From Defluviicoccus sp. (GTDB taxonomy: Bacteria; Pseudomonadota; Alphaproteobacteria; Rhodospirillales; Defluviicoccaceae), in contig JARSSM010000016.1 in NCBI GenBank assembly GCA_029624735.1, positions 5,993 through 69,992 of the forward strand: DNA of 64,000 nucleotides, in the 5' to 3' direction. The first letter of the stretch is position 1. Each line of letters opens with the position of its first letter. Below the pieces are notes generated by a model. The model did not search any database. It had not been told where the DNA came from and worked only from the letters and a program-made list of their open reading frames with translations. Of the stretch, positions 12,677-29,624 are shown in pieces. A program made the translations under genes and the position numbers.

Positions 12677-13010
12677 TGTCGGTTGCTGCCGGCAAAAAAA
12701 TGCGAGCGCTGCCGCGGCCGGTAGCGGATCGGGCCGCTGCACTCGATAAGGACCGCGGCGGCTGGATGGGGCGCCGGCTTGGAGACACGTAGAGTGCCCA
12801 AGAAATGTACGGACCGGCGGTTGGGTGCCTTTCGGACAGGCAGATTCGAGGATCCGGCAACGCCGTCCTGCGTTCTGCGGCTGGTCTGTTCACGCGAGGG
12901 CCATGGCAGCAATCGGCGCGAGATTCGCGCGAAGGCGAGGTGACAGGAACCGCCGGATCGGGCTACGCAGGAGCGGCGTGATCGTGCGCTCAAACCGGGG
13001 TCAACGAAGC

Positions 13011-13868: not shown

Positions 13869-13905
13869 ATAACGCGCGTGCATGGAATTGCTAGCGAGAC
13901 GGCAT
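13869..13905 (+). promoter_or_regulatory. OxyR/LysR-type four-element box upstream of the DoxX-NDH-2 gene
   Basis: ATAA-N7-GCAT-N7-CTAG-N7-GCAT, 11-bp phasing, resembles box at 22115-22151 read in reverse. Confidence 0.45.
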
Positions 13906-13981
13906 TTCACCGCCGACCGCGCCACCTGCCATGATTCAGGCTCAAGGGTCGGATCGCATCCGCCCGATGGTTTGATGGGAG

Positions 13982-16108
13982 GTGACCATGGCCGGCTCAA
14001 CCGCGGCCGCGCGGATCGGGACGCGTTTCGCGCCGGTATTTGAAGCGTGGGAGAACACGGTCGAGGCGTGCGCGCAGACGCTCGGCCCCGTGCTTGACCT
14101 CATCATCCGCCTCTGGCTGGCACAGATCTTCTTCGTTTCCGGCGTCGTCAAGACGGCGACCTGGGCGTCGACGGTGATGCTCTACACGACGGAGCATCCC
14201 GTACCTGGACTGGCACCGGCGACGGCCGCCGTACTCGGCACCGGCATCGAGCTGATCTGCGCGCCGCTCCTGGCCGTTGGCCTCTTCACGCGGCTCGCGG
14301 TTCTGCCGTTGCTGGCAACCACGCTCTTCTTGCAGCTGACCTACCTGGAACTCACCGACCACAGTTTGTGGATGGTGCTCCTGGGTCTCTTGGCCATCCG
14401 CGGTGCCGGCGCGCTGTCGTTGGACCACCTGATCGCGCCGCACCTGACAGGCTCCGCCATTCCCTTCGCCGCCACGTTACTGCGGCTTTTCAAGTGGCTG
14501 CAGCGAGCCGTCCTGCCCGCGTACCTTGTGGCGGTTCGGATCTGGTTCGGCTGGCTGGTGATGAGTGCTGTAACCGGCAGCGGCGGCGCTGCAACCGCGC
14601 TGACGATCGCCGCCTGTGCGCTGCTCGCGGCCGGGCTGGCGACGCAGTTTGCCGCGCTCGTCCTGATGATCCTGACCCTCACCGCGCAGGCAGCGATCCC
14701 CGAGCTTGGCGATCCCGTCCTGCGCCTGTTCGTCCTGGGCTTCTTCGTGATCCATGGCGCAGGCGCACTCTCGCTGGACCGCTTGGTGCAGACCAGCATT
14801 CGCGCCCTGTGCCCGAGCCTCACCATGGACCCTGCATGGTACGCGGATGCACCGCGGGTCGTTATCATCGGTGCCGGATTTGGCGGCATCGCAGCGGCGC
14901 GGGCGCTCAAGCACGCCCGGGCGCGGGTCACGCTGATCGACCGGCGCAACTACCATCTCTTCCAGCCGCTGTTGTACCAAGTCGCCACCGCGACGCTGTC
15001 GCCCGCCGATATCGCGGTGCCGATCCGCACGCTGGTGCGCGACCAGCGCAACTGCCAGGTCCTGATGGGCCGGGTCACTGCCATCGATCCGCACCGACGC
15101 GAGATCCAGTTCCGCGCCGGTTCGCAGCCGGCGGTCGGCTACGACTACCTGGTGTTGGCGACCGGCGCCCGGCACAGCTACTTCGGCAAGGACGCCTGGG
15201 AGCCGTTCGCGCCCGGCCTGAAGAAGATCGACGACGCAACGGCGATGCGCAGCCGGATCCTCTCCGCCTTCGAACAGGCGGAAGCCAGCGATGATCCGGC
15301 GGAGCGACAGCGTCTCCTGACCTTCGTCATCGTCGGCGGCGGCCCGACCGGAGTCGAGCTCGCAGGCGCGATTGCGGAGTTGGCGCACCACACCCTTCGC
15401 GAGGAATTCCGCAGCATCGATCCGGCCGAGGCGCGCGTCGTGCTCGTCCAGTCGGCGCCGCGCATCCTGCCGGCGCTGCCGGAGAGTCTATCCGTATCCG
15501 CGACCCGCGCCCTCGAAGGTCTTGGCGTCGAGGTCTTACTCAATACCCGCGTCGAAGGCATCGACGGCCAGGGGGCGACCATCGGCAACGAACGCGTCGA
15601 GGCGGGCACAGTGCTGTGGGCGGCAGGGGTCATGGCCTCGCCGGCCGGCCGCTGGATTGACGCTCAGTGCGATAACGCCGGCCGGGTCGAAGTCGCGGCC
15701 GATCTCTCGGTGTCCGGCTTGGCGAACATCTTTGCTATTGGCGATACGGCTGCTTGCGCTGGCGCGGACGGCCGGCCGCTGCCGGGCCTTGCCGCCGTCG
15801 CCAAGCAACAAGGCCACTATGTCGCGCGGCTGATCCGTGCCCGGATCGAAGGCCGGCGCGATCCTGGCCCGTTCCGCTACCGCAATCTCGGCTCGATGGC
15901 GACCATCGGCCGCAAGGCTGCGGTTGCCGAGCTGCCGGGAATGCGGTTGAGCGGTGGTATTGCCTGGTGGCTGTGGGGCTTGGTGCACGTCGCGTTTCTC
16001 GTCGACGCGCGCTCGCGGATCGCGGTGATGTTCGACTGGTTCTGGTCGTATCTCACCTTCAACCGCAGCGTCCGTCTGATCACCGGAGGGGAGGGAAGCG
16101 CCGATTGA
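13982..16108 (+). CDS. Fusion: two DoxX membrane domains plus type II NAD(P)H:quinone oxidoreductase (NDH-2)
   Basis: Two DoxX units each ending GAGALSLD; then IIGAGFGG, RRNYHLFQPLLYQVAT, IVGGGPTGVELAG, LWAAGV, FAIGDTA, AWWLWGLVH; one continuous 708-aa ORF. Confidence 0.85.
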   Translation: MTMAGSTAAARIGTRFAPVFEAWENTVEACAQTLGPVLDLIIRLWLAQIFFVSGVVKTATWASTVMLYTTEHPVPGLAPATAAVLGTGIELICAPLLAVGLFTRLAVLPLLATTLFLQLTYLELTDHSLWMVLLGLLAIRGAGALSLDHLIAPHLTGSAIPFAATLLRLFKWLQRAVLPAYLVAVRIWFGWLVMSAVTGSGGAATALTIAACALLAAGLATQFAALVLMILTLTAQAAIPELGDPVLRLFVLGFFVIHGAGALSLDRLVQTSIRALCPSLTMDPAWYADAPRVVIIGAGFGGIAAARALKHARARVTLIDRRNYHLFQPLLYQVATATLSPADIAVPIRTLVRDQRNCQVLMGRVTAIDPHRREIQFRAGSQPAVGYDYLVLATGARHSYFGKDAWEPFAPGLKKIDDATAMRSRILSAFEQAEASDDPAERQRLLTFVIVGGGPTGVELAGAIAELAHHTLREEFRSIDPAEARVVLVQSAPRILPALPESLSVSATRALEGLGVEVLLNTRVEGIDGQGATIGNERVEAGTVLWAAGVMASPAGRWIDAQCDNAGRVEVAADLSVSGLANIFAIGDTAACAGADGRPLPGLAAVAKQQGHYVARLIRARIEGRRDPGPFRYRNLGSMATIGRKAAVAELPGMRLSGGIAWWLWGLVHVAFLVDARSRIAVMFDWFWSYLTFNRSVRLITGGEGSAD

Positions 16109-16264
16109 CCGTCTGCGCTTGGCTTGGAGATCCTCCTGCAGCGCCCGTAGATGGAATTTGCCATCTGGGATTTCTTGCGTCCGGCCCTGATCCGAATTAG
16201 GATTTCACCGCTCCAGTTTTGCGGGACCGCTTGAATAAACCAAGAACGCTGGGATGAGGCGGGA

Positions 16265-17197
16265 ATGGAGCTCTACCAAGTTAAGTACTTTGTCAGCCTG
16301 TGCGAGACCCTCAACTTCACGCGTGCTGCGGAAAAGTGCAACGTAGCGCAGCCGAGCCTGACTCGCGCAATCCAGAACCTTGAGCGCGAGTTGGGTGGTC
16401 CTCTTTTCCACCGCGAACGTCAGAATACGCACCTCACCGAGTTGGGCCGCCTCATGCAGCCCTACTTCGAGGATATGCTGGGCCAAACACAGGCGGCGCA
16501 CGCTTTCGCCCGCAGTTTTGCCAACCTGGATGGCATCTCGCTGCGGATTGGCGTGATGTGCACGATCGGGCCAATCATGGTGTCGGATTTCCTGCGTTCG
16601 TTTGCCGAGCGCCATCAGGGGTTGGACATCTGCGTGCTCGACGCCTCCGCCCAGGCGTTGCAGAGCAAGCTGCTGAACGGCGAGATCGAGGTTGCCATCT
16701 ACGGTATGCCGGAACTGCAGCCGCACGACCGCTTGCACGCCTTACCACTGTTCTACGAACGCTTCGTCGTCGCGGTCGCGCGCGACCATCCGCTCGCCGC
16801 ACACGAGACCGTGCGCTGCAAAGATTTGCACAAGGGGCGTTACATCAACCGGATCAATTGCGAAGTATACGAGGTGGCGACTGCAGCCCTGCAACGCCTG
16901 GGCGTCGAGGTGCAAATGGTTTTCCGCAGCGAGCGCGATGACTGGGTCCAGGCGATGATCGCCGCCGGGCACGGCTTCGGTTTCTTTCCTGAGTACTGCG
17001 TCACCATGCCCGGCATCGTCGGCCGCCCCTTGGTCGAGCCGGAAATGTACCGCACGGTCGATCTGGTCACCGTGCGCGGCCGTCCGTTCTCGCCTGCCGT
17101 GGGCGCATTCGTGCGCGCGGCGAAGGCATTCACGTGGTCGCCGGCGCCGCCGGTCCCTCGGCCACACGACACGGATCGCGGCGCCTTCGCGGCCTGA
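16265..17197 (+). CDS. LysR-family regulator, OxyR-like
   Basis: HTH NFTRAAEKCNVAQPSLTRAIQNLE; GVMCT100IGP; Cys199 in RINCE. Confidence 0.9.
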   Translation: MELYQVKYFVSLCETLNFTRAAEKCNVAQPSLTRAIQNLERELGGPLFHRERQNTHLTELGRLMQPYFEDMLGQTQAAHAFARSFANLDGISLRIGVMCTIGPIMVSDFLRSFAERHQGLDICVLDASAQALQSKLLNGEIEVAIYGMPELQPHDRLHALPLFYERFVVAVARDHPLAAHETVRCKDLHKGRYINRINCEVYEVATAALQRLGVEVQMVFRSERDDWVQAMIAAGHGFGFFPEYCVTMPGIVGRPLVEPEMYRTVDLVTVRGRPFSPAVGAFVRAAKAFTWSPAPPVPRPHDTDRGAFAA

Positions 17198-17263
17198 ACG
17201 GTTGCCGATGGTGTCCTGAACCACAGCCAAGCAGATCCACCGCAGACGCAAGGAATCCCGGGG

Positions 17264-18142
17264 ATGGAGCTGTACCAGGTCAAGTACTTCCTTGCCGTCT
17301 GCGATCTCCTCAACTTCACCCGCGCGGCCGAACGCTGCAACGTTTCGCAGCCGAGCTTGACTCGCGCCATTCAGAACCTGGAGGCCGAGTTCGGCGGCCC
17401 GCTGTTTCACCGTGAGCGCCAGAACACGCACCTGACCGACTTGGGCCAGATGGTCCGCCCCTACCTTGAGGAGGTCGGCCAGCAGGCCGAAGCGGCGCGC
17501 GAGCGGGCCAGGCAGTATGTCAAACTGACAGATGCGCCGCTGATGGTCGGCGTCATGTGTACGATCGGTCCCGGGAAGCTGGTGCCGCTCTTTGCCGAGT
17601 TCCAGCGCAGCTATCCGGGCGTCGATATCGCGCTCCGCGACGCCCGCGCGGAAATGCTGCGCGACATGCTGGCCAAGGGTGAACTCGACCTTGCCATCTT
17701 CGGCCAGCCGGAACCGCCCGACGACCGTTTCAATGCATTGGAGCTGTTTCACGAATCGTTCGTGATCGGCTTCGGGCCAGGCCATCCGTTCGAGCCCTTG
17801 AACGCCGTCCGGCTGAGCGATCTGCATCAGATGCGCTACTTGAGCCGCGCCAATTGCGAGTTCGGAGACTATATGCGCGCGATGTGCCGGGAGCGCGGGA
17901 TCGAGCCGCTACGCCCTTACCGCAGCGAACGCGATGACTGGATTCAGGCGATGGCGCTGGCCGGGCTCGGCTTTACGTTCATCCCGCAGTTTGCGGTCAC
18001 AATCCCGGACCTGATTACGCGGCCGCTGATCGAGCCGGAGGTCGCTCGCACGGTTCATCTGGTAACCGTACGCGGCCGGCCGCACGGCAAGGCGGTCGGC
18101 GCCTTCGTCCGCACGGCGATGGCTCTGCGGGGAAAACTCTAG
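17264..18142 (+). CDS. LysR-family regulator, OxyR-like (paralog of upstream gene)
   Basis: Near-identical HTH; GVMCT100IGP; Cys198 and Cys208. Confidence 0.9.
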   Translation: MELYQVKYFLAVCDLLNFTRAAERCNVSQPSLTRAIQNLEAEFGGPLFHRERQNTHLTDLGQMVRPYLEEVGQQAEAARERARQYVKLTDAPLMVGVMCTIGPGKLVPLFAEFQRSYPGVDIALRDARAEMLRDMLAKGELDLAIFGQPEPPDDRFNALELFHESFVIGFGPGHPFEPLNAVRLSDLHQMRYLSRANCEFGDYMRAMCRERGIEPLRPYRSERDDWIQAMALAGLGFTFIPQFAVTIPDLITRPLIEPEVARTVHLVTVRGRPHGKAVGAFVRTAMALRGKL

Positions 18143-18216
18143 CCAGTTAGCGGCACGGCCACGATGACGTGGTCGTGCGGTCGCCAGAGGCCAGGCGCCA
18201 ACTCTTCCCTCCATCC

Positions 18217-18260
18217 GCATGAACGTTCCAGCATGAGCGTTCCAGCATGTCGCGTGCATG
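18217..18260. repeat. Short tandem repeat with GCATG core (14,14,11-bp spacing)
   Basis: GCATGAACGTTCCA GCATGAGCGTTCCA GCATGTCGCGT GCATG. Confidence 0.6.
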
Positions 18261-18357
18261 TTGGCAGGAACAATTGACGGTCAGTTGTTCAGCGGAGATA
18301 ATAGTGGCAAAGCGCTCGTGATAATAAGGACGCTTGCCACCCAAATGGAGGTCGACA

Positions 18358-18705
18358 ATGAAGCGCATCGCATCAAGTTTGTTACTTGGTGTTATTGTTG
18401 GTTGTGCTTCTATTGGTTCTGCTCACGCGGCAGAGGTATTCGTGATTCGTGGAGCAGAAGCGAAATCGGTTGCAACGGAACCAACCCCCGGGGTTACCGT
18501 TCTGCGCGGCGAACCAGCCGCGATCGCTGAACCAGCAGCGGCGGCACAGGGCACTGCGGCGACAGAGGAGGATGCGCCAGCGGAGTCGGGTGAGTTCATG
18601 ACCGGCGGCCGGCCGCTCTGGCGCATCGATCACGAAACGGGTCGCATCGTCGGCTGTTGGCTGCGGGGGTCCGCGAACCGGCAGGTTGTCTGCTCCAATC
18701 TCTGA
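18358..18705 (+). CDS. Hypothetical secreted protein
   Basis: GGAGG RBS before ATG 18358; Sec-type signal MKRIASSLLLGVIVGCASIGSAHA; Ala/Pro/Glu linker; C-terminal domain with two Cys. Confidence 0.6.
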   Translation: MKRIASSLLLGVIVGCASIGSAHAAEVFVIRGAEAKSVATEPTPGVTVLRGEPAAIAEPAAAAQGTAATEEDAPAESGEFMTGGRPLWRIDHETGRIVGCWLRGSANRQVVCSNL

Positions 18706-18727
18706 GCGGCCGGGCGAGGCTTCCTTC

Positions 18728-19417
18728 TCAGCGCGCGTGGCCGATGGCCCGGCGGTCACCTTCCCGTTTCCCCTCAACGGCGCCGACCGCCGCGACGATC
18801 GCTTCCGGTTCTGCGCATTCGCGGTGATCGGGGCAGACGAAAGCCGCCACCGCCATGCCGCCGGGGTCGATGACATAGCTCGCCGGGATCGGCAGGAACG
18901 CGGTGGGCCCGCCGTTGCGGTCCATCAGGTCAATACCACGGGCGCGATAGACCGCCTGCAGCGGGCCGGGTACGGGATAGCGCAGGCCGAACAGCTGGCA
19001 GACCTTAGCGCCGGGATCGCTGAGACGCGTCAGCCCCTCGAACGTGTCGGCAGCCGCGGTCGGATCCGTTCGGTCCTGCACCGGCGAGATGGCGAGCAGC
19101 GTCGCGCTCTGTTCGGCAATGAGTGGAGCGAGGGGGGCATACGCCGCCAGGACGGCGGCACACAGCGGACACCAGGGGCCGCAGGTGAACGTCAGTACCA
19201 CGGGACCGCGGTCGAGCCGGTCGATTAACCGCACCACCCGCCCGTTCGCGTCGGCGAGCGTGAATTCAGGCGCCAGTTCGCCATCCCGCAGCGCGCCCCC
19301 TTCGACGCCCGATTGCGCGAGCCACTGAGCGGCGTAGTCCATGGTCCGAACCTGCTTGGGCGTGAAACCGCGCCGCCACGTCGCACGCGCTTCGGCCAAA
19401 GTGTCTGCGAGCGTCAT
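18728..19417 (-). CDS. AhpC/TSA (peroxiredoxin-like, thioredoxin-fold) protein
   Basis: APEFTLADANG, GPVVLTF, GPWCPLC, LLAISP, LPIPASYVID. Confidence 0.8.
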   Translation of the reverse strand: MTLADTLAEARATWRRGFTPKQVRTMDYAAQWLAQSGVEGGALRDGELAPEFTLADANGRVVRLIDRLDRGPVVLTFTCGPWCPLCAAVLAAYAPLAPLIAEQSATLLAISPVQDRTDPTAAADTFEGLTRLSDPGAKVCQLFGLRYPVPGPLQAVYRARGIDLMDRNGGPTAFLPIPASYVIDPGGMAVAAFVCPDHRECAEPEAIVAAVGAVEGKREGDRRAIGHAR

Positions 19418-19475
19418 TCTTGCGCATCCGTCATTCTGGTGCCATTCGGCCAAGTGCCATTCGTCGCGAGAAATT

Positions 19476-19501
19476 CAGCCGGCCTCTGCCGAGGCCGGCT
19501 G
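19476..19501 (-). terminator. Probable intrinsic terminator after the DoxX gene
   Basis: 11-bp stem CAGCCGGCCTC/GAGGCCGGCTG, 4-nt loop, weak AAUUUC tail on minus strand. Confidence 0.5.
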
Positions 19502-19534
19502 CAGGTGGGGGGGAGCAACGTCGATGCGCGCGGG

Positions 19535-20011
19535 TCAGGACTGCTGATCCTCGAACAGCCGTCCGGCGATGAGGTGATCAATCGACAGCGCACCGGGCCC
19601 GCGGGTCACAAGGTACGCAAGGATCGATCCCCACAGCAGATGATCGGGCCAGTTCTCCGGGTAGACGAACAGCTGGATGACGAGGGTCATGCCCAACAGC
19701 GCCGCCGCGGCGAAGCGGGTGAAAAGACCGCATGCGACCAGAGCCGAGGCACCGAGCTCGGTTGCGGTGGCGAGGTAAGCCGCAAACGCCGCCGGCAGCA
19801 CCGGCACCATGTATTCCATGTCGAACAGGGCGACGGTTGCATCCCAACTCGCGATCTTGGTCAGGCCCGAGCGGAAGAACACGACGGCGACGGCCAAGCG
19901 GAACGCCAGCGCCAGGATGGACGTCGGGAATTTCTCCAACAGAGCACGGCCGGCGATGATGCTTCCGGTCAGGCTGCCGCTGCGGAGCGGGTGTGACAGT
20001 GTGGTAGCCAT
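19535..20011 (-). CDS. DoxX family membrane protein (BufD-like)
   Basis: RLAVAVVFFRSGLTKI, ELGASALVACGLFTRFAA, HLLWG, RGPGALSIDH; last gene of DUF692 operon. Confidence 0.88.
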   Translation of the reverse strand: MATTLSHPLRSGSLTGSIIAGRALLEKFPTSILALAFRLAVAVVFFRSGLTKIASWDATVALFDMEYMVPVLPAAFAAYLATATELGASALVACGLFTRFAAAALLGMTLVIQLFVYPENWPDHLLWGSILAYLVTRGPGALSIDHLIAGRLFEDQQS

Positions 20012-20028
20012 GATACCTCCTCACGAGA

Positions 20029-20817
20029 TCAGTTGATTGCAGTAACCGAGGCGACGACACCGCCTTCGAACAGCGACTCCAGGAGAGCGGGTGCGTTGAA
20101 CGAAGGCGCAATCGCGCGGGCGAGCGCGTTTGCCTTGCCGAGTCGACCGTCGGCAAGCAGGCTGCCGATGAAGGCAAATGCGGCGGCATCGAGCTTGAGC
20201 CAGCCGACTTCACCGTCCTGGCGATGGATGAACAGCTGCACACCGCCGGCCTCAAGATCGACCGCCGCGATTTCGTCATCGCCTTGCTGGTGAACCTGCC
20301 AGATCCGGTCGACCGGCCATGCCGACTTGACCAGACGGCAGGATGGATCGAGGCCGATGAACAGATCGCAAGACGGCGCTTCGATCTGCGCTGCCGCCGC
20401 TGCTGCATCGAGTGACGGCACATCGACGGCATGGCGGGCGCGGTTGATCGCCCACTCCAGCCGCGCCAGGTCGGCGAGATAGCCGAGCGAACCCGCTTCC
20501 GGCAGGCTTGCGAGGAACGCCGGAAAGCCGTCGCCGTACTCGAACAGGCACGGCCGCTGCGGCGGCTGGCTGAGGACATAGCGGCGCGCGGCTGCGGTAA
20601 AGAAGGCGTCGCCCACCAGCCGCCGGACGACGGGGAAGGTGGCGCCCAAGGCTTCGATGAGCGTCAGGCGGAAGTGATGGACATGGATCGCAAGCCGTGC
20701 CGACGCTCCCGGCGCATCCTCGACAATGGCGTTCGTGCCGGCGAAGGCCTGCTCCGCGAGCAGCCTTCCGGCTGCAACGGCGGCGAAACGGCTCTGCAGT
20801 TCACGCAGCGGCAGCAT
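20029..20817 (-). CDS. DUF2063 family MNIO partner/chaperone (BufC/HvfC-like)
   Basis: RLAIHVHHFRLTLIEALGATFPVVRRLVGDAFF, YGDGFPAFL, DLARLEWA; overlaps DUF692 end. Confidence 0.85.
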   Translation of the reverse strand: MLPLRELQSRFAAVAAGRLLAEQAFAGTNAIVEDAPGASARLAIHVHHFRLTLIEALGATFPVVRRLVGDAFFTAAARRYVLSQPPQRPCLFEYGDGFPAFLASLPEAGSLGYLADLARLEWAINRARHAVDVPSLDAAAAAAQIEAPSCDLFIGLDPSCRLVKSAWPVDRIWQVHQQGDDEIAAVDLEAGGVQLFIHRQDGEVGWLKLDAAAFAFIGSLLADGRLGKANALARAIAPSFNAPALLESLFEGGVVASVTAIN

Positions 20818-21670
20818 AACCCACCTCCTTGTGCACGGACCGCCAGCGGCGATCGGCCTCTTGCGCTTCCGCCACCAGGACTGGCAGCGGCGGCAGATTG
20901 CTGTCCCACTCGATCAGGGTGGCGGCATTCGGGAAGCGGGCGACGGCCCGCTCATAGAGTTCCCACACGGCGGCCGAAACCTGGCTGCCGTGATCATCGA
21001 TGAGGATCGTCACGCCGTCGGCGTCGTTGACGGCGTGCCCGGCAAGGTGAAGCTCATGCACGGCATCCGCTGGCAGGCCTTCGATCCACGCCAGGGGATC
21101 GCCGCCAAAATTGCGGCAGTTGACGAACACGTTATTGACATCAAACAACAGGCCGCAGCCGGTTCGCCGAACCAGCTCATTGAGGAATTCGACTTCGCTC
21201 AGTGTCGATTGTGCGAAACGAAGGTAGGCGGACGGATTCTCGATCAGAAGCTGGCGCCGCAGACGGTCCTGGACTTGGGCAATGTTGGCCGCGACCACGG
21301 CGAGGCTCTCCTCGCTGTAGGGAAGCGGCAAGAGATCGTTGAGGTACATCCCGTCGACGACCGACCAGGCGAGGTGCTCCGAGACCCAGTCCGGCTCGAT
21401 ACGCTCGACCAGTCGTGCCAGCCGTTCGAGGTGCCGGTCGTTGATGCCCTCGGCACTGCCAAGCGACATCCCGACGCCGTGCACGCTGATCGGCCAATGA
21501 CGCCGCACGACCTCGAGACGCGCCGGCATCCGGCCGCCGCCCATATAATTTTCGGCGTGGATCTCCAGAAAACCGACCGCCGGTCGGGTCGCGACGATCT
21601 CCTCGAAGTGCGGGCAACGGAGGCCGATGCCCGCCGTCTGGCGCTCTGTGGAGGAAGGTAGGGTGGACAT
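20801..21670 (-). CDS. DUF692 multinuclear non-heme iron oxidase (MNIO, BufB-like RiPP maturase)
   Basis: GIGLR, EIHAENY, HGVGMSLGS, SEHLAW, DLLPLP, IENPSAY, DVNNVFV, ELHLAGH, IDDHGS, LIEWD. Confidence 0.93.
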   Translation of the reverse strand: MSTLPSSTERQTAGIGLRCPHFEEIVATRPAVGFLEIHAENYMGGGRMPARLEVVRRHWPISVHGVGMSLGSAEGINDRHLERLARLVERIEPDWVSEHLAWSVVDGMYLNDLLPLPYSEESLAVVAANIAQVQDRLRRQLLIENPSAYLRFAQSTLSEVEFLNELVRRTGCGLLFDVNNVFVNCRNFGGDPLAWIEGLPADAVHELHLAGHAVNDADGVTILIDDHGSQVSAAVWELYERAVARFPNAATLIEWDSNLPPLPVLVAEAQEADRRWRSVHKEVGYAAAA

Positions 21671-21709
21671 GATCGTCGCTCCCGCCGGAGGTGGTGCCTT
21701 GTTGGTGGG

Positions 21710-21973
21710 CTACTTCTTGGTCGTCGAGCCACCGACCAGCTTGTCGCAGGTGCCGGCCGGAACGTAGACCCACGAGTCCGGCTGTGCGTCGCGCTTGGCG
21801 GTACCGGCGCACGAGCTGCCCGCCGTCTGGCAGTCGTTCATGCCGGCCTTCACGACGCCGAAGCACTTCTCGAACTTGTAGGTCGGCTGCTCGGCGGGGC
21901 CGGCGAGGGCAGCCGCGGAAACGGCAACGGTACCGACGAGGGCTGAAGCCAGTGCCAAAGTCGTCTTCTTCAT
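21710..21973 (-). CDS. DUF2282 bufferin-type (BufA1-like) periplasmic RiPP precursor
   Basis: 87 aa; signal peptide then EKCFGVVKAGMNDC-x6-CAGT...WVYVPAGTCDKLVGGS (C37, C48, C55, C76); GGGAGA RBS. Confidence 0.9.
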   Translation of the reverse strand: MKKTTLALASALVGTVAVSAAALAGPAEQPTYKFEKCFGVVKAGMNDCQTAGSSCAGTAKRDAQPDSWVYVPAGTCDKLVGGSTTKK

Positions 21974-22114
21974 CTTTCGATCTCCCACTGAAGTGTTGAC
22001 AAGGAAACGGTTCACTCTCGTTGCACTTAAGGAGCTGGTGGGTGGGCTCTGTTGTCGCCGCGATCACCGCCTCAAGCGCGCTATCACATTCCCGCAAACG
22101 CGTCTGAGAGTGAA

Positions 22115-22151
22115 ATGCAGATCGCCTATGGCTTCGATAGGCGAGCGCTAT
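22115..22151. promoter_or_regulatory. OxyR-type box upstream of the RiPP precursor
   Basis: ATGC-N7-CTAT-N7-ATAG-N7-CTAT; 14 of 16 positions match ATAG-N7-CTAT-N7-ATAG-N7-CTAT. Confidence 0.65.
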
Positions 22152-22168
22152 GTTCGCGCCAGCCGCCC

Positions 22169-22205
22169 ATAACCCCGCTCAGTCCCGACGATAGCTTGCC
22201 GTCAT
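22169..22205 (+). promoter_or_regulatory. Second, weaker LysR-type box facing the SDR operon
   Basis: ATAA-N7-CAGT-N7-ATAG-N7-TCAT. Confidence 0.4.
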
Positions 22206-22323
22206 GAACATGAGAGCGAGTCGCTATTTCCCTCTGACGGCCCGCTTGTTGAGAATGAGTGTCGTAGCGGTCGAGGCCGATCAGGGCCGCCGTCAACCGA
22301 ACAACCCGCGGAGGAATGCCATC

Positions 22324-23193
<870 letters not shown>

Positions 23194-23197
23194 GCCG

Positions 23198-24211
23198 ATG
23201 CGGCGGATCCTGCTCGCACTGGCGCTTGCGGCCTCGGCCGCAAGCCCGGCCTGGTCCGGCGAAGGGGGCGGGAGCGCGGCTTCCGACTCCCGCGCCGACC
23301 TGCCCGACGGTGTCGCCCCGTGGTGGCCCAGCCGCTACGGCGCCGACGATGAGATCGGCACGCTCAACGAGCTCACACCGGCGCGCATTGTCGAGGCGGT
23401 GCGGCTCGTCCGCCAGGGCGAGCGCATTGACCTCGGCCGCGTGCTCGACAAGGACACACCGGTCTTCCCCGGCCGCTACTGGCACCAGAGCGTCGATCTC
23501 GCGCCGCTGATCACCAACCTGCGCCGCGCCGACGCGCACGGCCGCGGCTGGGGGCTCAACGAAATCAACTGGATCACCGAGATCCAGGTCGGCACCTTCC
23601 AGGTCGGCACCCAGCTCGACTCGATCGGCCATCTGCAGATTGGCGACCGCTTCTACAACGGCTGGAAAACCCGCGATGTGGTCGAGGACTGGGGCCTCAA
23701 CCGGTTCGGGATCGAATCCGTCCCGCCGATCGTCGGCCGCGGCATCGTGGTCGATCTCGCCGGATTGAACGGCGTCGAACGCCTCGACAAGGGCACGGTG
23801 ATCGGTGTGGCCGACGTCGAGCGTGCCCTCGCCCGCCAGGGCATCACGATTGCTGAAGGCGATATCGTGCTGCTCCACACCGGCTGGGGCAGCCTCTGGG
23901 GCAAGGACAACGCGCTGTTCCTGTCGGGCGAACCGGGCCCCGGTCTGGCGCTCACCGAGTGGCTGCACGCCAAGCGCATTGCCGCACTCGGCACGGATAG
24001 CTGGAGCATCGGCCCGGTTCCGGGCGAGGACCCGGCGCGCCCGTTCGTCGTCCCGCAGACGATGTACGTCAAGATGGGGCTGTTCGGCTTCGAGAACCTC
24101 GCCACCGAACGGCTGGTCGAGCGCGGCATCTCCGAATTCCTGTTCGTCAACACGCACGGCCGGACGCGCGGCTCGACGGCCGCAGTCGTTGCACCAGTGG
24201 CCGTGTACTGA
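23198..24211 (+). CDS. Exported metal-dependent hydrolase, cyclase/kynurenine formamidase family
   Basis: Signal peptide; YGADDEIGTLN, QVGTQLDSIGH, LLHTGW, GTDSW, ENL. Confidence 0.8.
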   Translation: MRRILLALALAASAASPAWSGEGGGSAASDSRADLPDGVAPWWPSRYGADDEIGTLNELTPARIVEAVRLVRQGERIDLGRVLDKDTPVFPGRYWHQSVDLAPLITNLRRADAHGRGWGLNEINWITEIQVGTFQVGTQLDSIGHLQIGDRFYNGWKTRDVVEDWGLNRFGIESVPPIVGRGIVVDLAGLNGVERLDKGTVIGVADVERALARQGITIAEGDIVLLHTGWGSLWGKDNALFLSGEPGPGLALTEWLHAKRIAALGTDSWSIGPVPGEDPARPFVVPQTMYVKMGLFGFENLATERLVERGISEFLFVNTHGRTRGSTAAVVAPVAVY

Positions 24212-24228
24212 AGGTTGCGGAGGAGACA

Positions 24229-25686
24229 ATGGACGACGATTTCGACGCGATCATTGTCGGCTCGGGCGCCGGCGGCGGTGCCGCTGCGTACCGGCTGGCG
24301 ACAAGCGGCTGCCGCGTGCTGGTGCTGGAGAAGGGCGCGCCACTGCCGCACGACGGCAGCACGCTCGACGCCGGCATCGTCCTCAGCGAGGGCCGCTTCA
24401 AGAACCACGCCCCGTGGCGGGACGGCGACGGCGCCCCCTTCGTGCCGCAGGAGTACTACAACCTGGGCGGCAAGACGAAGTGGTACGGCGCCGCGCTCTT
24501 ACGCTTTGGCAGCCATGAGTTTGCCGACGATCCAGCGCATCAGTGCCGCGGCTGGCCGTTCGCATACGACGCGTTGGCACCCTACTATGAACAGGCCGAA
24601 GACCTTCTGGGCGTGCGCCGCTTCGCCGTCGAGCCCGATACGCAGCGCATCGCAGCGGCGTTTGAACGGGTCGCGCATGGCTGGCAGGTCGAGCCGATGC
24701 CACTCGGGCTCGCCGCCGACATCCTCGAACATCCGGAGGAAGCCGTGCGGTTCGACGGCTTCGCTTCCCCGCGCGGCCTGAAATCGGACGCCGAGGTCCG
24801 CTTGTTGGATCCGCTGCGCAACCGTCCCGGCATCCGTATCGAAACGAACGCCGAGGTCGTGGACCTTATCACGGCCGAGGGAGCGCCGGAGCGCGTCACC
24901 GGTGTCGTCACCGCCGACGGATCACGCTTCACCGCCAAGATGGTCCTGCTCGCCGCCGGTGCCCTGTCCTCACCGCGCCTCCTGCAGCACCATCTGCATG
25001 CAACCGGCTTGGATACGGTCCTGCCGGCGGCGCAATCGGTCGGCCGCAACTACAAGAGCCACCTGTTGACGGCAGTCGTTGGCTGGTCGCCGCGGCGGAA
25101 GACCGACCGCCTGCGCAAGACGGTGGTGATGACGAGCGAGGCCTTCGCGCATTCGAGCGTGCAGCCGCTGGGCGCCACCGACGGTGAGATCGTCGCCACC
25201 GAGCTGCCGGCATTCATGCCGCGCTGGGTTGCTGATCTGGTCGGCAACCGCGCCTACGGCTTTTTCCTGCAGACCGAGGACGGCTCGCATCCCGATAACC
25301 GGGTGAGCGCGGCAAACGGCTTTGCAAGCCCGCAGCTCGACTATGACCGCGACCGCATCGCGCCGGCGCGCGATGAACATCGCCATTTCGTGCGCGCGTT
25401 CTGCCGCGATCTCTTGCGGGTGGGGATGTTCCCGATCGTCAAGCCGATCCCGCTTTCCGGCACGGCGCACGCCTGCGGCACGCTGATCGCCGGCAATGAC
25501 CCTGCAACCTCGGTGGTCGACGCCTTCGGCAAGGTGCACGGCATGGACGGTCTCTATGTCGTCGACGGCAGCGTCCTGCCGCGCTCCAGCCGCGTCAATC
25601 CCGCGCTCACGATCTACGCCTGGGCGCTCCGCGTCGCCGACAGCCTTGCGCCTCAGCTTGCCTCCCATTCTGGAGAAAACCGATGA
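24229..25686 (+). CDS. GMC family oxidoreductase
   Basis: IIVGSGAGGG, LGGKTKWYGA, LAAGALSSPRLL, AHACGT, YVVDGSVLP, NPALTI. Confidence 0.88.
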   Translation: MDDDFDAIIVGSGAGGGAAAYRLATSGCRVLVLEKGAPLPHDGSTLDAGIVLSEGRFKNHAPWRDGDGAPFVPQEYYNLGGKTKWYGAALLRFGSHEFADDPAHQCRGWPFAYDALAPYYEQAEDLLGVRRFAVEPDTQRIAAAFERVAHGWQVEPMPLGLAADILEHPEEAVRFDGFASPRGLKSDAEVRLLDPLRNRPGIRIETNAEVVDLITAEGAPERVTGVVTADGSRFTAKMVLLAAGALSSPRLLQHHLHATGLDTVLPAAQSVGRNYKSHLLTAVVGWSPRRKTDRLRKTVVMTSEAFAHSSVQPLGATDGEIVATELPAFMPRWVADLVGNRAYGFFLQTEDGSHPDNRVSAANGFASPQLDYDRDRIAPARDEHRHFVRAFCRDLLRVGMFPIVKPIPLSGTAHACGTLIAGNDPATSVVDAFGKVHGMDGLYVVDGSVLPRSSRVNPALTIYAWALRVADSLAPQLASHSGENR

Positions 25687-28391
25687 CCATCCGCACAACC
25701 CTTGCCCCGGAACGGCAGCGTCTGGAAAACCAGCGCTCAGGCGTCGAAAACTGGCGGCGCTGGGGGCCTTACCTCTCCGAGCGCGCCTGGGGCACGGTGC
25801 GCGAGGACTACAGCGCCGACGGCAACGCCTGGAACTACCTTTCCCATGATGACTCGCGCTCGCGCGCCTATCGCTGGAGCGAGGACGGCCTGGGCGGCCT
25901 TTCGGATGACCAGCAGCGGCTGTGCTTCGCCTTGGCACTTTGGAACGGCGCCGATGCGATCCTCAAGGAACGCGCATTCGGCCTGACCGGCAACCAGGGC
26001 AACCGCGGCGAGGACGTCAAGGAGTACTACTTCTATCTGGACGCCACGCCCAGCCACAGCTTCCTGCGCTACCTTTACAAGTATCCGCAGCGCCGCTTCC
26101 CCTATGAGCGTCTGATCGAAGAGAACGCGCGCCGATCCCGGCACGAACCGCCGTTCAATTTGAGCGAAGCCGGCCTGTTCGACGACGGCCGCTACTTCGA
26201 TGTCGAGGTGTGCTGCGCCAAGGCCGGCGCGGACGAGATTCACATCCGCATCACCGCGGCCAATCGCGGGCCGGAGCCGGCCACCTTGCATCTGCTGCCG
26301 ACCTTGTGGTTCCGCAACACCTGGTCATGGGGCGATGGAACGGCCAAGCCGGTCATGCGCCAGGTCGTGCCGCCCAAGGGTGCCGCCTGGGCCATCGAGG
26401 CAGCGCACGAAGAGCTCGGCCAGGTGTTTCTCTATGGTGCGCAGGAGGGAACACCGCTTTTCACCGAGAACGAGACCAATGGCCGCCGGCTCTGGGGCGA
26501 CGCGCACGCCAGCCCGTACGCCAAGGACTCCTTCCATCGCCGCATCATCAACGGCGAGACGGGTGCGGTCAGAACGGACGGTACCGGCACCAAGTTCGCC
26601 TCCTGGCACGCGTTGACGGTGCCGCCGGGAACGAGCGTGCACCTCGATCTCGTGCTTTCGGAACGGCCGTTGAGCCAGCCCTTTGCCCGCAGCGAGATGG
26701 TGTTCGTGGCCAGACGTGACGAAGCCGATGCCTTCTATGCGGAGGTGCTGCCCGAGGCGAACGCCGAGGACCGGCGTATCGTCCGCCAGGCGCTGGCCGG
26801 GATGATCTTCTCCAAGCAGTTCTTCCATTTCGATGTCAGCCGCTGGCTCGATGGCGATGCCTTCCCCGCTCCGGCAGAGCGCCAGTGCGGTCGTAACGCA
26901 CGCTGGAAGCACATGAAGGCGGCCGACATCCTCTCGATGCCGGATGCCTGGGAGTACCCCTGGTTTGCCGCCTGGGATCTGGCGTTTCACACCGCGGCGC
27001 TGGCCCTGGTCGATGTCGATTTCGCCAAGGACCAGATCGAGATCATGGTCAACGAGCGCTACCTGCACCCGAACGGCCAGATCCCGGCGTACGAATGGAA
27101 CTTCTCTGACGTCAATCCGCCGGTGCACGCGCTGGGGGCGCTGAAAGTATTCCGGGCCGAGCGCGTGCAGCGCGGCCTGGGCGACCATGCGTTTTTGGGC
27201 CGCGTCTTCCACAAGCTGCTGCTCAATTTCGCCTGGTGGATCAACCAGAAGAACGGCGACGGCAGTAACGTTTTCGAGGGCGGGTTCCTCGGTCTCGATA
27301 ATATCTCGGTGTTCGACCGCTCGCAGCCGCTGCCGGGCGGCTACCGGCTCAAACAGGCCGATGCCACCGGCTGGATGGCGATGTTCGCGCTCAACATGAC
27401 GCTGATCGCGCTCGAACTCACGGCCGACGATCCGGCCTACGAGGACATCGCGATCCAGACCTACGAGCAGTTCTTGAGCATTGCCAACACGCTCGCCGGC
27501 TATGCCGACGGCGGCGTGCCGATCTGGGACGAAGGCAGCGGTTTTTTCAAGGACCTGATCGTCGGCCCGAACGGGACAAGCCGGCATATCGACGTCTACT
27601 CGATGGTCGGCCTGATCCCGCTGTATGCGACCGAGATCGTCGATCAGCGCCTGCTCGCGCACGCGCCGCGGTTCCGCGAACGCCTGCGCCGCCACGCCGG
27701 CGGCGTTTTCCGCGGCAACATCATCTGCGCCTGCCCGGAGACCGTGAACGCGCGCGGCGAGCATCTGCTCTCGGTCGTCGATCACACGATGCTTCAGCCG
27801 CTGCTCGGGCGGCTCCTTGACGAAGCGCAGTTCCTCTCGCCGTTCGGCGTCCGCAGCGTCAGCAAGATCCACGAACAGCATCGGGAGTTGGGCGAGCTGC
27901 CTGGCGTCGGCTGGGCGATGATCGAGTACGTCCCCGGCGAATCGAACTCGCCGCTGTTCGGCGGCAACTCGAACTGGCGCGGGCCGATCTGGATGCCGGT
28001 GAACTTCCTGCTCGTCCAGTCGCTGGAGAAGTTCTACCGCTACCTGGGCGACAATTTCACCGTAGCGGTGCCCAGCTTGGGCGGTGCCGCGCTCAACCTC
28101 CAGGAGATTGCGCACCTCATCGCCGAGCGGCTCGTCAACATCTACCGCCGCGACCCGAACGGTACCGTGGCGGCGATGCAGGGCCAGCCGCAGTTCACGA
28201 ACGACGCACACTGGCGCGACCTGCTGCTGTTCTACGAGTATTTCCATGCCGAGACCGGCCAGGGCCTCGGCGCCGCGCATCAGACCGGCTGGACCGGCCT
28301 GATCGCGAACCTGGTGATGCGCCGCTACCGTCGCGGCATCCCCCGCTACTGGCGGGAGCAGCAGGCGCATGCAGCGGCGGCGGCCGAGTAA
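25683..28391 (+). CDS. MGH1-like glycoside hydrolase (GH63-related)
   Basis: WGPYLSERAWGTVREDYS, MPDAWEYPWFAAWDLAFH, DFSDVNPPVH-like NFSDVNPPVH, GESNSPLFGGNSNWRGPIW, GAAHQTGWT. Confidence 0.82.
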   Translation: MTIRTTLAPERQRLENQRSGVENWRRWGPYLSERAWGTVREDYSADGNAWNYLSHDDSRSRAYRWSEDGLGGLSDDQQRLCFALALWNGADAILKERAFGLTGNQGNRGEDVKEYYFYLDATPSHSFLRYLYKYPQRRFPYERLIEENARRSRHEPPFNLSEAGLFDDGRYFDVEVCCAKAGADEIHIRITAANRGPEPATLHLLPTLWFRNTWSWGDGTAKPVMRQVVPPKGAAWAIEAAHEELGQVFLYGAQEGTPLFTENETNGRRLWGDAHASPYAKDSFHRRIINGETGAVRTDGTGTKFASWHALTVPPGTSVHLDLVLSERPLSQPFARSEMVFVARRDEADAFYAEVLPEANAEDRRIVRQALAGMIFSKQFFHFDVSRWLDGDAFPAPAERQCGRNARWKHMKAADILSMPDAWEYPWFAAWDLAFHTAALALVDVDFAKDQIEIMVNERYLHPNGQIPAYEWNFSDVNPPVHALGALKVFRAERVQRGLGDHAFLGRVFHKLLLNFAWWINQKNGDGSNVFEGGFLGLDNISVFDRSQPLPGGYRLKQADATGWMAMFALNMTLIALELTADDPAYEDIAIQTYEQFLSIANTLAGYADGGVPIWDEGSGFFKDLIVGPNGTSRHIDVYSMVGLIPLYATEIVDQRLLAHAPRFRERLRRHAGGVFRGNIICACPETVNARGEHLLSVVDHTMLQPLLGRLLDEAQFLSPFGVRSVSKIHEQHRELGELPGVGWAMIEYVPGESNSPLFGGNSNWRGPIWMPVNFLLVQSLEKFYRYLGDNFTVAVPSLGGAALNLQEIAHLIAERLVNIYRRDPNGTVAAMQGQPQFTNDAHWRDLLLFYEYFHAETGQGLGAAHQTGWTGLIANLVMRRYRRGIPRYWREQQAHAAAAAE

Positions 28392-28406
28392 CGGGAGGAC
28401 ATCGTC

Positions 28407-29624
28407 ATGCAGCCTACGCGCTCGCTGCCGGTCGCAGCACCTGCCACGTGGCCCGCGATTGCGCTCGTCTACACGGCGGCGCTCGTGCAGGGGATGACGC
28501 TGGTGAGCTTCCCGGCCTTGAGTGGCGTGCTCAAGGAAACGCTCGCACTTTCCGATGCCGCCTACGGTGCCATCTTCCTGCCTCAGGTCGCCTGTGCCGT
28601 CGCCGGTGCGGTGGCGGGCGGCAGTCTGGCGCGAAAGCTTGGGTTACGGGCGTTGCTCGCACTCGCCCTTGCCTGCAACGGCCTGAGCCAGGCGCTCCTG
28701 GCGGCGACGGCGATGCTCCCTCAATCCGTGGGCGTCGCCATGCTGTTCGCCGGCACCGCCTGCCTTGGCCTCGGCTTCGGGCTGATTGGCGCGCCCATCA
28801 ACAGCTATCCGCGGCTGCTCTTCCCCGCCAAGGGCGAACCGGCGCTGGTTGCCGCCCACACCCTGATCGGCTTGGGCCTGGCGACCGCACCGTTGGCGGC
28901 GGCACCGCTGATCGAGGCCGGCATGTGGGCCAGCCTGCCGCTGATCCTGGCTCTTGTCTGTGCCGCCTTGGCGGCCGCGACGTTGATTACGGCGTTACCA
29001 CAGCCAGCGGACGTCGCGTCCGAGACCCGTCGTCCCCGCCCGCCGGTTGCCGCACCGCTGTTCTGGCTGTTCGCCGCCATCACCGTCATCTACGCCTTCG
29101 CCGAAGGGACCTTTTCCAACTGGGCGGTGATCTATTTGCGTGACAGCCGTGGCCTGCCGGAGATGACCGCGGGCCTGGCACTCTCCGCGTTCTGGGGGGC
29201 GATCGTCGTCGGCCGGCTGGTGATCACGCTCCTTGTCGTGCGCGTGCCGGCACGGCTGATCTGGCTCACGCTGCCGTGCCTGATGATCGCAGCCTTCTGG
29301 CTGCTGCCGTATGCGGGCAGCGCGCTCACCGGCATCGGCTTCTTCGCGCTTGCAGGCCTCGCCTGTTCGGCGTTCCTGCCGCTGACCATCAGCCTCGCGG
29401 TGGAGCGCTTTCCGGAAGCCGTCGCCTGGGTGTCGTCGATGCTGATCGCAGCCTTGATGGTGGGCGTCGGCCTGGGCTCATATCTCGTCGGTGCCCTGCA
29501 GGCGGTGCTGCCGCTGGATGCGCTCTACCGCCTGTCGTCGGTGTACCCGGCGGCCGTGCTGCTGCTCGCCGGCCTCGTGCTGCGCGCACGCATACGCCGC
29601 CCGGAGCCTGCCCCGGCGGCGTGA
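28407..29624 (+). CDS. MFS transporter (sugar-permease-like)
   Basis: About 12 hydrophobic segments; YAFAEGTFSNWAVIYL. Confidence 0.85.
   Translation: MQPTRSLPVAAPATWPAIALVYTAALVQGMTLVSFPALSGVLKETLALSDAAYGAIFLPQVACAVAGAVAGGSLARKLGLRALLALALACNGLSQALLAATAMLPQSVGVAMLFAGTACLGLGFGLIGAPINSYPRLLFPAKGEPALVAAHTLIGLGLATAPLAAAPLIEAGMWASLPLILALVCAALAAATLITALPQPADVASETRRPRPPVAAPLFWLFAAITVIYAFAEGTFSNWAVIYLRDSRGLPEMTAGLALSAFWGAIVVGRLVITLLVVRVPARLIWLTLPCLMIAAFWLLPYAGSALTGIGFFALAGLACSAFLPLTISLAVERFPEAVAWVSSMLIAALMVGVGLGSYLVGALQAVLPLDALYRLSSVYPAAVLLLAGLVLRARIRRPEPAPAA

Follow-up and report, generated by a model that had tools for sequence, protein, structure and literature searches.

A Putative LysR-controlled Stress Regulon Joins a Bufferin Operon, a DoxX-DoxX-NDH-2 Fusion, and a Glucose-oxidation Operon in Defluviicoccus

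Genes and Operators of the Locus

We analyzed 64,000 nucleotides of DNA from Defluviicoccus sp. (Alphaproteobacteria; GenBank assembly GCA_029624735.1, contig JARSSM010000016.1, positions 5,993 to 69,992 of the forward strand), a stretch referred to here as the window, and concentrated on a 16-kb block that contains a bufferin operon. Bufferins are among the largest families of ribosomally synthesized peptides with post-translational modifications (RiPPs). A preliminary description had listed the genes of this block, and every one of them was found at its position. The block probably forms a compact stress regulon of three transcription units with the same 40-bp operator, likely bound by either or both of two locally encoded LysR-type proteins (LysR1 and LysR2), and it would bring together a bufferin, a DoxX-NDH-2 protein, and glucose oxidation. 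The features of the proposed regulon are listed below in window coordinates; operator scores are those of the cross-family matrix described in the next section.

13869-13908, plus strand: operator O1 (ATAACGCGCGTGCATGGAATTGCTAGCGAGACGGCATTTC), ~80 bp upstream of the fusion gene; 37.6 bits.
13988-16108, plus strand: DoxX-DoxX(degenerate)-NDH-2 fusion, 706 aa from the ATG at 13988; the open reading frame (ORF) is open from a GTG at 13982 (708 aa).
16265-17197, plus strand: LysR1, an OxyR-like LysR of a distinct subfamily, with Cys99 and a Cys at the OxyR C199 column.
17264-18142, plus strand: LysR2, a paralog of LysR1, with Cys at the OxyR C199 and C208 columns.
18728-19417, minus strand: AhpC/TSA-Redoxin-fold protein (AhpC-like protein) with WCPLC, downstream of bufD.
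19535-20011, minus strand: BufD (DoxX); PF07681, 63.8 bits.
20029-20817, minus strand: BufC (DUF2063/HvfC-type partner protein); PF09836, 75 bits.
20801-21670, minus strand: BufB (MNIO bufferin maturase); NF050167, 372.8 bits (cut-off 310), and PF05114, 344.5 bits.
21710-21973, minus strand: BufA1 precursor (DUF2282), with a Sec signal peptide and four Cys; PF10048, 82.9 bits (cut-off 22.4).
22112-22151, minus strand: operator O2 (ATAGCGCTCGCCTATCGAAGCCATAGGCGATCTGCATTTC), directed toward bufA, ~140 bp upstream of its ATG; 44.8 bits.
22191-22230, plus strand: operator O3 (ATAGCTTGCCGTCATGAACATGAGAGCGAGTCGCTATTTC), ~94 bp upstream of the SDR start; 32.4 bits.
22324-23193, plus strand: SDR, glucose-1-dehydrogenase-like; PDB 1rwb, 1gee, and 1gco at E ~1e-72, and NF005559, 232.5 bits.
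23198-24211, plus strand: cyclase-family (PF04199) metal hydrolase with a signal-peptide-like N terminus.
24229-25686, plus strand: GMC flavoprotein oxidoreductase; the nearest structures are catalytic subunits of FAD glucose and fructose dehydrogenases.
25683-28391, plus strand: GH63/MGH1-like glycoside hydrolase of 902 aa, whose N-terminal half is without a family match.
28407-29624, plus strand: MFS transporter, the last gene of the SDR operon.

A 40-bp Operator Unique to Three Promoters

The operators precede the three transcription units headed by the DoxX-DoxX-NDH-2 fusion gene, bufA, and the SDR gene. An 11-bp-phased ATAG/CTAT box had been reported at these three promoters in the preliminary description; the box is real and stronger than claimed, as each promoter carries a full 40-bp site with the consensus ATAG-N7-CTAT-N7-(A/C)TAG-N7-GGCATTTC and with identical geometry. 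Measured against the OxyR operator, which has four ATAG-type elements at 10–11-bp spacing, three of the four elements fit and the fourth is GGCATTTC. The site thus reads as an OxyR-like tetrad, the last element of which would overlap the promoter. In alignments of the bufA-SDR and fusion-upstream regions with relatives whose proteins are only 60–90% identical, the operator footprint was kept in at least 8 related genomes while the surrounding intergenic DNA had diverged; it is seen even where protein identity is only 60–70%. The distance from operator to downstream gene is fixed across relatives, and the spacing between the divergent O2 and O3 ranges from ~30 to 290 bp.

A matrix made from these sites found no further match in the 3.4-Mb genome. 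We also rebuilt the matrix in a noncircular way, from 23 sites that all come from other families, and it recovered exactly three sites in the 3.4-Mb genome (44.8, 37.6, and 32.4 bits). If an overlap with the bufA site on the other strand (19.4 bits) is set aside, the next match reached 14.4 bits, and the best scores in shuffled genomes (n = 5) were 14–18 bits. Taken together, the uniqueness of the operator and the result with the cross-family matrix point to a dedicated local regulator and not to the housekeeping OxyR; a global OxyR regulon was rejected because the sites are unique in the genome. The sharing of one genome-unique operator by three promoters also bears out the earlier proposal that these parts form one unit.

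The start of a 329-aa ORF at 22204 falls inside O3, and the SDR most likely starts at 22324 instead. A leader peptide (MNMRASRYF...) 5′ of the SDR was considered and rejected, because the block has the operator geometry of the other two sites and the frame is broken in some relatives, with a stop in one (L015) and no ATG in another (L023).

Two LysR Proteins of a Distinct OxyR-like Subfamily

LysR1 and LysR2 are 54% identical, and the best match among solved structures is OxyR (4x6g, E = 2e-25). On the OxyR model NF008361 (cut-off 329) LysR1 scored 101 bits and LysR2 103 bits, and a separate housekeeping OxyR homolog on another contig (C1:178327-179205) scored 232 bits. In the tree, the two proteins fall within a well-supported subfamily far from this housekeeping OxyR. 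The helix-turn-helix of the subfamily is nearly invariant, and Cys14, Cys27, Cys99 (GVMCTIGP), and the Cys at the OxyR C199 column, the latter in the context NCE, are invariant. The conserved cysteines at the C199 column and at position 99 suggest that these regulators may be thiol-sensing.

We searched the 98.9%-complete genome for an NrsF anti-sigma factor (PF06532) and found none, with Caulobacter as a positive control. This agrees with one half of the earlier claim that a LysR pair replaces control by an extracytoplasmic function (ECF) sigma factor. The other half, the pair, was overstated: in the genus-level comparison both paralogs occur only in the three closest genomes, and the other relatives have a single LysR.

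The subfamily also accompanies the operator elsewhere, as it is present in most operator-bearing loci of other families. We infer that the local LysRs are likely the proteins that bind the operator, since the operator occurs nowhere else in this genome and, in other genomes, is accompanied by the LysR subfamily. LysR-type control of the set is well supported in silico by this distribution.

The Fusion Protein and Its Relation to BufD

The fusion scored against DoxX (PF07681, 43.5 bits, repeat 1), Pyr_redox_2 (PF07992, 173.8 bits), and NDH2_C (PF22366, 46.3 bits, cut-off 27.7). Its C-terminal part has what defines NDH-2, two Rossmann folds of the Pyr_redox_2 type and the NDH2_C membrane-anchor domain, and the AlphaFold model (pLDDT 74) agrees, showing two sets of four transmembrane helices followed by an NDH-2 fold. 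Repeat 2 is degenerate and lies below the DoxX threshold; it is detectable as an internal repeat (E = 3e-8), and in the homologs P0047 and P0069 two DoxX stretches score. The second Rossmann strand ends in Gln in 13 of 14 fusions. Replacing E with Q here reportedly lets Agrobacterium NDH-2 use NADPH, and the Gln hints at NADPH use by the fusion as well.

Invariant charged residues lie within the membrane helices of the DoxX repeats, and no Cys or His is invariant. A quinone-site or scaffold role therefore fits the repeats better than a thiol relay, and a DsbB/VKOR-like relay was rejected as their function because the repeats are without an invariant Cys.

DoxX repeat 1 of the fusion is ~50% identical to BufD. 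Unfused NDH-2 proteins of the same clade are encoded directly after bufD at three loci (L077, L096, and L118) and between bufD and bufB at another (L120). A covalent BufD-NDH-2 fusion had been considered for L077 and L096 and was rejected, as inspection showed two adjacent genes at each. Several families are involved in these arrangements, in which the NDH-2 clade is fused to DoxX, comes after bufD, or lies inside a buf operon. This pattern of fusion and fission argues that BufD-type DoxX proteins and the NDH-2 flavoprotein work together.

The Bufferin Operon and the AhpC-like Protein

By its gene content, bufABCD is a canonical bufferin operon. On the minus strand the four genes adjoin or overlap one another, placing BufC and BufD in one operon with BufA1 and BufB, and they comprise the gene set of a Buf1 cluster: a DUF2282 precursor (signal peptide, four Cys), a BufB-type MNIO, a DUF2063 protein, and a DoxX. 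BufA1 is the only DUF2282 protein in the genome. By analogy with characterized bufferins, mature BufA1 is predicted to be a copper-binding peptide modified with 5-thiooxazoles.

In several operons of Beta- and Gammaproteobacteria, DoxX directly follows BufA1 and the operon contains neither MNIO nor DUF2063 (L030:974-1868; L048:34-775; L039:2024-2992). The BufA1-DoxX pair in these operons may function with no maturation genes at the locus, or it may depend on ones located elsewhere.

The gene next to bufD had been described as encoding a CxxC peroxiredoxin-like protein. The protein is present and has WCPLC, and the motif is not conserved in its family: the first active-site position is C, S, or, in one Reyranella ortholog, an in-frame TGA, and most orthologs within the genus have SxxC. 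The second Cys was kept in nearly all orthologs inspected. We saw no signal peptide and no transmembrane segment in the AhpC-like protein, and it is thus probably cytoplasmic; a periplasmic MauD analogue was rejected on the same ground and because CxxC is not conserved. The gene lies beside buf genes or the fusion at other loci (L031, L033, L034, L044, L064, L077, L098, and L121). Between the bufD stop and the AhpC-like start, at window positions 19460–19500, is a GC-rich inverted repeat (GCCGGCCTC-N4-GAGGCCGGC) resembling a weak terminator or attenuator. Co-transcription of the AhpC-like gene with bufABCD may therefore be only partial.

The Reyranella ortholog is encoded on a chromosome (L103:12728-13303, minus strand) with the TGA at the first Cys of WCxxC (GSW*PYC), and the ORF runs ~130 more codons past it. 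It may be a selenocysteine (UxxC) variant.

The Sugar-oxidation Operon

The SDR aligns end to end with Bacillus glucose 1-dehydrogenase (PDB 1rwb, E = 8e-73). It exceeded the cut-off of NF005559 (232.5 bits, cut-off 215) and was under that of NF006493 (288.8 bits, cut-off 420). It is a glucose-1-dehydrogenase-like protein, for which glucose is the predicted substrate. The GH63-like protein gave no match in the search of solved structures (PDB) and none in NCBIfam.

The operon varies among lineages. A two-domain VOC/glyoxalase protein replaces the cyclase in some, a MIP channel stands in place of the MFS transporter in others, and a GDE gene of other lineages scores near a putative glycogen-debranching model. 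In other Alphaproteobacteria the same operator precedes a 3-hydroxybutyrate dehydrogenase (TIGR01963, 382 bits, cut-off 307), which would be a second NAD(P)H-forming enzyme, acting on the monomer of a storage polymer. Both dehydrogenases would yield NAD(P)H from storage-polymer monomers without a need for an Fe-S cluster, which fits a stress-induced, Fe-S-independent route from reserves.

Recurrence of the Gene Set

The order fusion/LysR/AhpC-like/BufDCBA/SDR...GH63 is kept in at least 10 genomes of the genus and one sister genus. The DoxX-NDH-2 architecture is far wider, as at least 238 proteins from Alpha-, Beta-, and Gammaproteobacteria matched the DoxX half alone. In Beta- and Gammaproteobacteria the parts form a single co-directional operon, BufA1-DoxX-SDR-(cyclase or VOC)-GMC-GDE-GH63-(MIP or MFS)-fusion, often with overlapping genes. 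Examples are a metagenome-assembled genome (MAG) of Burkholderiales (DUF2063-DoxX-SDR-VOC-GMC-GDE-GH63-MIP-fusion), a Chromatiales MAG (SDR-cyclase-GMC-GDE-GH63-SDR-MIP-fusion-flavoprotein), and a metagenome contig with overlapping genes (BufA1-DoxX-SDR-cyclase-GMC-GDE-GH63-fusion-MFS); another contig has BufA1-MNIO-DUF2063-AhpC-like-...-fusion-LysR. Every part, including two tandem LysRs, is present in Inquilinus limosus (L047). These single operons, with the glucose-1-dehydrogenase-like SDR, back the link between sugar oxidation and the DoxX-bound flavoprotein that had been proposed earlier, a link that comes up again independently in these lineages.

We scanned 80 loci from species representatives: 44 have a fusion with two DoxX, 6 are split or ambiguous, and 30 serve as controls with an unfused NDH-2. 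BufA1 was found in the fetched flank of 14 of the 50 DoxX-linked NDH-2 genes and 1 of the 30 controls, and the sugar module in 14 of 50 and 0 of 30, respectively.

We also drew an even sample of the class (301 genomes; NDH-2 clade threshold E < 1e-90). bufB was present in 114 genomes, the NDH-2 clade in 35, and both in 23, in 5 of which they were no more than 5 kb apart. The LysR subfamily was present in 27 genomes, 20 of which also had bufB; it lay within ~6 kb of bufB in 9 of the 27 and beside NDH-2 alone in 1 more, so that it adjoined one or the other in 10 of 27. The chance expectation for such adjacencies is estimated at ~0.1, a figure that is indicative only because the genomes are related and not independent. 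In this neighborhood survey, of a kind suggested at the outset, LysR adjoins bufB or NDH-2 far more often than by chance, and it does so in a minority of bufB-bearing genomes.

The operator lies 5′ of BufA, NDH-2, AhpC-like, SDR, and DoxX genes at loci of several alphaproteobacterial families (L031, L034, L047, L077, L087, L089, L096, and L098) and occurs at further loci from the even sample (L117–L122), where a LysR of the subfamily flanks L117, L119, and L120. In the even sample it precedes BufA-BufB-BufC-(BufD)-NDH-2, SDR-BufA-BufD-NDH-2-BufB-BufC, and BufA-AhpC-like-fusion-SDR. Operator, LysR subfamily, BufA1, NDH-2, AhpC-like protein, and SDR thus recur together across several families of the class, in support of the earlier proposal.

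At some loci (L087, from Microvirga vignae, and L089, L096, L098, and L071) the operator also stands before genes for secreted cupins (GECPAGK), DUF302, a patatin-like lipase, a molybdopterin oxidoreductase, and an alpha/beta hydrolase. Because the operator precedes these further genes, the regulon would be broader in those Alphaproteobacteria, with up to 5–6 sites per 20 kb. A full DoxX-DoxX-NDH-2 fusion with no partner genes within 10 kb is encoded on plasmid p1MG of Acidithiobacillus ferrianus, an acidophilic metal oxidizer (L045).

The set is real and recurrent, and it is a minority variant that accounts for ~4–8% of the bufB-bearing genomes sampled. This share agrees with a published survey in which extra conserved genes occur in bufferin clusters at very low proportions (PMC12452194).

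Proposed Model

The sequence analysis shows which genes are present, that one operator serves all three promoters, that the genome has no further copy of it, and that the genes recur as a set; on this basis we propose the following model. A redox or copper signal would be sensed through the conserved LysR cysteines, and LysR1 and/or LysR2, which most likely bind all three operators, would turn on all three units. The first unit would supply a cytoplasmic NDH-2 joined to a DoxX-DoxX membrane module of eight helices, that is, an NAD(P)H:quinone-type oxidoreductase without an Fe-S cluster. The second, bufABCD, would make a periplasmic copper-chelating RiPP, with the AhpC/Trx-fold thiol protein encoded next to it. 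In the third, the GH63-like hydrolase, the SDR, and the GMC flavoprotein, together with the transporter, would release and oxidize glucose. The bufferin would then chelate copper outside the cell, while inside the cell storage-derived glucose would give NAD(P)H, whose electrons the DoxX-anchored NDH-2 may hand either to an acceptor bound by DoxX or to the quinone pool. BufD, the DoxX of bufferin operons, would be the membrane partner of the NDH-2 flavoprotein. Within this scheme, thiol sensing, electron flow through the membrane, and the use to which NAD(P)H is put are hypotheses, and so are the signal that switches on the units, the direction in which electrons move and what accepts them, and what the sugar operon is for.

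We extend the model only tentatively, as a possibility somewhat short of an even chance, to bufferin systems in general. BufD/DoxX may partner, in the membrane, a flavoprotein of the NDH-2 type that is dedicated to it and uses NAD(P)H, forming with it an inducible, Fe-S-free module for electron input. Such a module could draw on storage carbon through glucose or 3-hydroxybutyrate dehydrogenases and support the copper or oxidant defence provided by bufferins, for example by reducing Cu(II) or quinones at the membrane. In Alphaproteobacteria control of the whole set would fall to a Cys-rich, OxyR-like LysR that is new to the literature and has a 40-bp operator of its own.

Several observations weigh against the regulon as we draw it. 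Some half of the DoxX-NDH-2 fusions, with examples in Erythrobacter and Sphingomonadaceae, have none of the partner genes beside them, and among the 114 bufB-bearing genomes NDH-2 is adjacent in 5 and LysR in 9; the rarity of extra genes in the published survey counts in the same direction. On these figures the preliminary description went too far in calling the system built around a bufferin. Most LysR-type loci outside the genus lack the sugar module, and the operons of Beta- and Gammaproteobacteria lack LysR; the three-way combination is therefore limited to the family of Defluviicoccus and Inquilinus (L047). As the fusion is the sole NDH-2 homolog found in the 98.9%-complete genome, it may double as a housekeeping enzyme or sole alternative NADH dehydrogenase. 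To these are added the absence of an invariant Cys or His from the DoxX repeats and, in the regulators, the restriction of the C208-column Cys to LysR2 and a few others, with LysR1 and most members missing it.

Alternative Explanations

A regulon that answers oxidant, HOCl, or quinone (electrophile) stress and not copper, with the DoxX-flavoprotein pair as its core and the bufferin as an optional output, is the alternative that survives best, although we regard it as unlikely. It would be comparable to RclA/RclC or to the MhqR regulon. The OxyR-like character of both regulator and operator suits it, and so do the many fusions without a bufferin, the VOC/glyoxalase proteins that replace the cyclase in some operons, the cupin, DUF302, and molybdopterin-oxidoreductase genes under the operator elsewhere, and a flavoprotein gene of the disulfide-reductase type after the fusion at one locus (L029). 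It leaves less room for the facts that BufA1 heads most long operons and that bufferins are copper-induced and copper-protective where tested (10.1101/2024.03.18.585515). The copper and oxidant readings are compatible, because copper stress and oxidant stress overlap.

DoxX (in BufD and the fusion) and the Trx-fold AhpC-like protein might instead make up a thiol-disulfide relay for the bufferin precursor, MauE/MauD- or DsbB/DsbA-like and powered by NAD(P)H through NDH-2. BufD and the fusion match Pfam MauE weakly, several lineages encode a redoxin-fold WCxxC protein after bufD or bufC, the in-frame TGA (possibly selenocysteine) of the Reyranella ortholog marks a redox-active site, and the outer Cys pair of BufA1 forms a disulfide (PMC12452194). 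This relay is nevertheless very improbable given the probably cytoplasmic location of an AhpC-like protein without signal peptide or membrane anchor, its SxxC in most orthologs of the genus, and DoxX repeats without an invariant Cys.

That an ordinary bufferin operon merely sits beside unrelated neighbors, in a synteny inherited within the family and with boxes that are global OxyR sites, is likewise highly doubtful: the operator does resemble the tetrad bound by OxyR in E. coli, the genome has a housekeeping OxyR homolog (232 bits), synteny inside a single genus is weak proof alone, and few extra genes are conserved at bufferin clusters (PMC12452194), but the gene set reappears, rearranged, in other orders and classes, the operator has three copies in the genome and occurs at no other locus, most loci with the operator in other families also have a LysR of the subfamily, and LysR adjoins bufB or NDH-2 in 10 of 27 genomes, far above chance.

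Neighboring Features

Two further genes lie in or beside the block.

18334-18705, plus strand: small secreted ORF of 123 aa with a signal peptide, between LysR2 and the AhpC-like gene.
12825-13733, plus strand: lipoprotein-like protein with NlpE_C and META domains, directly 5′ of operator O1.

The 123-aa protein is without a family match and is kept only in the closest relatives, G004 (88%) and G008 (55%); its membership in the system is uncertain. NlpE/CutF is linked to copper in E. coli. The NlpE_C/META protein is kept only in the closest genome (G004) and is therefore probably not part of the regulon.

Significance and Comparison with Known Systems

It has been noted that "transcriptional regulators" often co-occur with bufferin clusters and that DoxX is perhaps an unrecapitulated factor (PMC13097082). 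In the open-access literature we found no paper linking bufferin or DoxX with LysR or NDH-2, and none, also under DUF2282, that describes this arrangement. With the locus and its relatives, the role of DoxX and the control of the many bufferin clusters that have no ECF sigma genes can both be put to a direct test. They offer a defined operator with a cognate LysR subfamily, evidence from fusion, fission, and operons for DoxX working with an NDH-2-type flavoprotein, and a link from a periplasmic metallophore to cytoplasmic generation of NAD(P)H from storage compounds. If the model is true, copper or oxidant defence would be tied to a respiratory bypass and to the use of carbon reserves, and the widespread, uncharacterized DoxX-DoxX-NDH-2 architecture would be explained.

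Like the known Buf1 clusters, the locus has a DUF2282 precursor, MNIO, DUF2063, and DoxX in the same order, the precursor with its signal peptide and four Cys. Buf1 clusters are frequently controlled by an ECF sigma factor and an NrsF anti-sigma factor (SigF), a trait that does not define them, whereas here no NrsF was found and an OxyR-like LysR operator is shared with the DoxX-NDH-2 gene and the glucose-oxidation operon; the AhpC-like gene after bufD is a further difference.

The LysRs resemble OxyR of E. coli and P. aeruginosa in the Cys at the C199 column, to which LysR2 adds that at C208, and the operator resembles OxyR sites in having ATAG/CTAT elements one helical turn apart. They differ from OxyR in scoring ~100 bits against a cut-off of 329, in the additional invariant Cys14, Cys27, and Cys99, and in having NCE and not GHC. 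The operator differs in its fourth element, GGCATTTC, and in serving three local promoters and not a genome-wide set, and a separate housekeeping OxyR is present.

Like NDH-2, the fusion combines Pyr_redox_2 and NDH2_C with two dinucleotide folds and with membrane helices at its C terminus. It departs from NDH-2 in its N-terminal eight-helix DoxX-DoxX module, in the Gln that replaces Glu in 13 of 14 proteins, and in its place within buf or sugar operons. Cupric-reductase activity has reportedly been seen with E. coli Ndh. In E. coli RclABC, which responds to HOCl and Cu, and in M. tuberculosis DoxX-SseA-SodA, a membrane protein of the DoxX superfamily and a redox enzyme form a unit that stress induces; RclA, a Cu(II)-reducing flavoprotein, shares with the NDH-2 the broad superfamily of pyridine-nucleotide-disulfide oxidoreductases. 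The present system is unlike RclABC, whose RclC is said to be related to DoxX, in having an NDH-2 and not a disulfide-reductase dimer, a LysR and not the AraC-type RclR, and a covalent fusion. Finally, the SDR is close to Bacillus glucose 1-dehydrogenase (1gco, 1gee, 1rwb), and here it is placed together with GMC, GH63-like, cyclase, and MFS genes under what is probably a stress operator.

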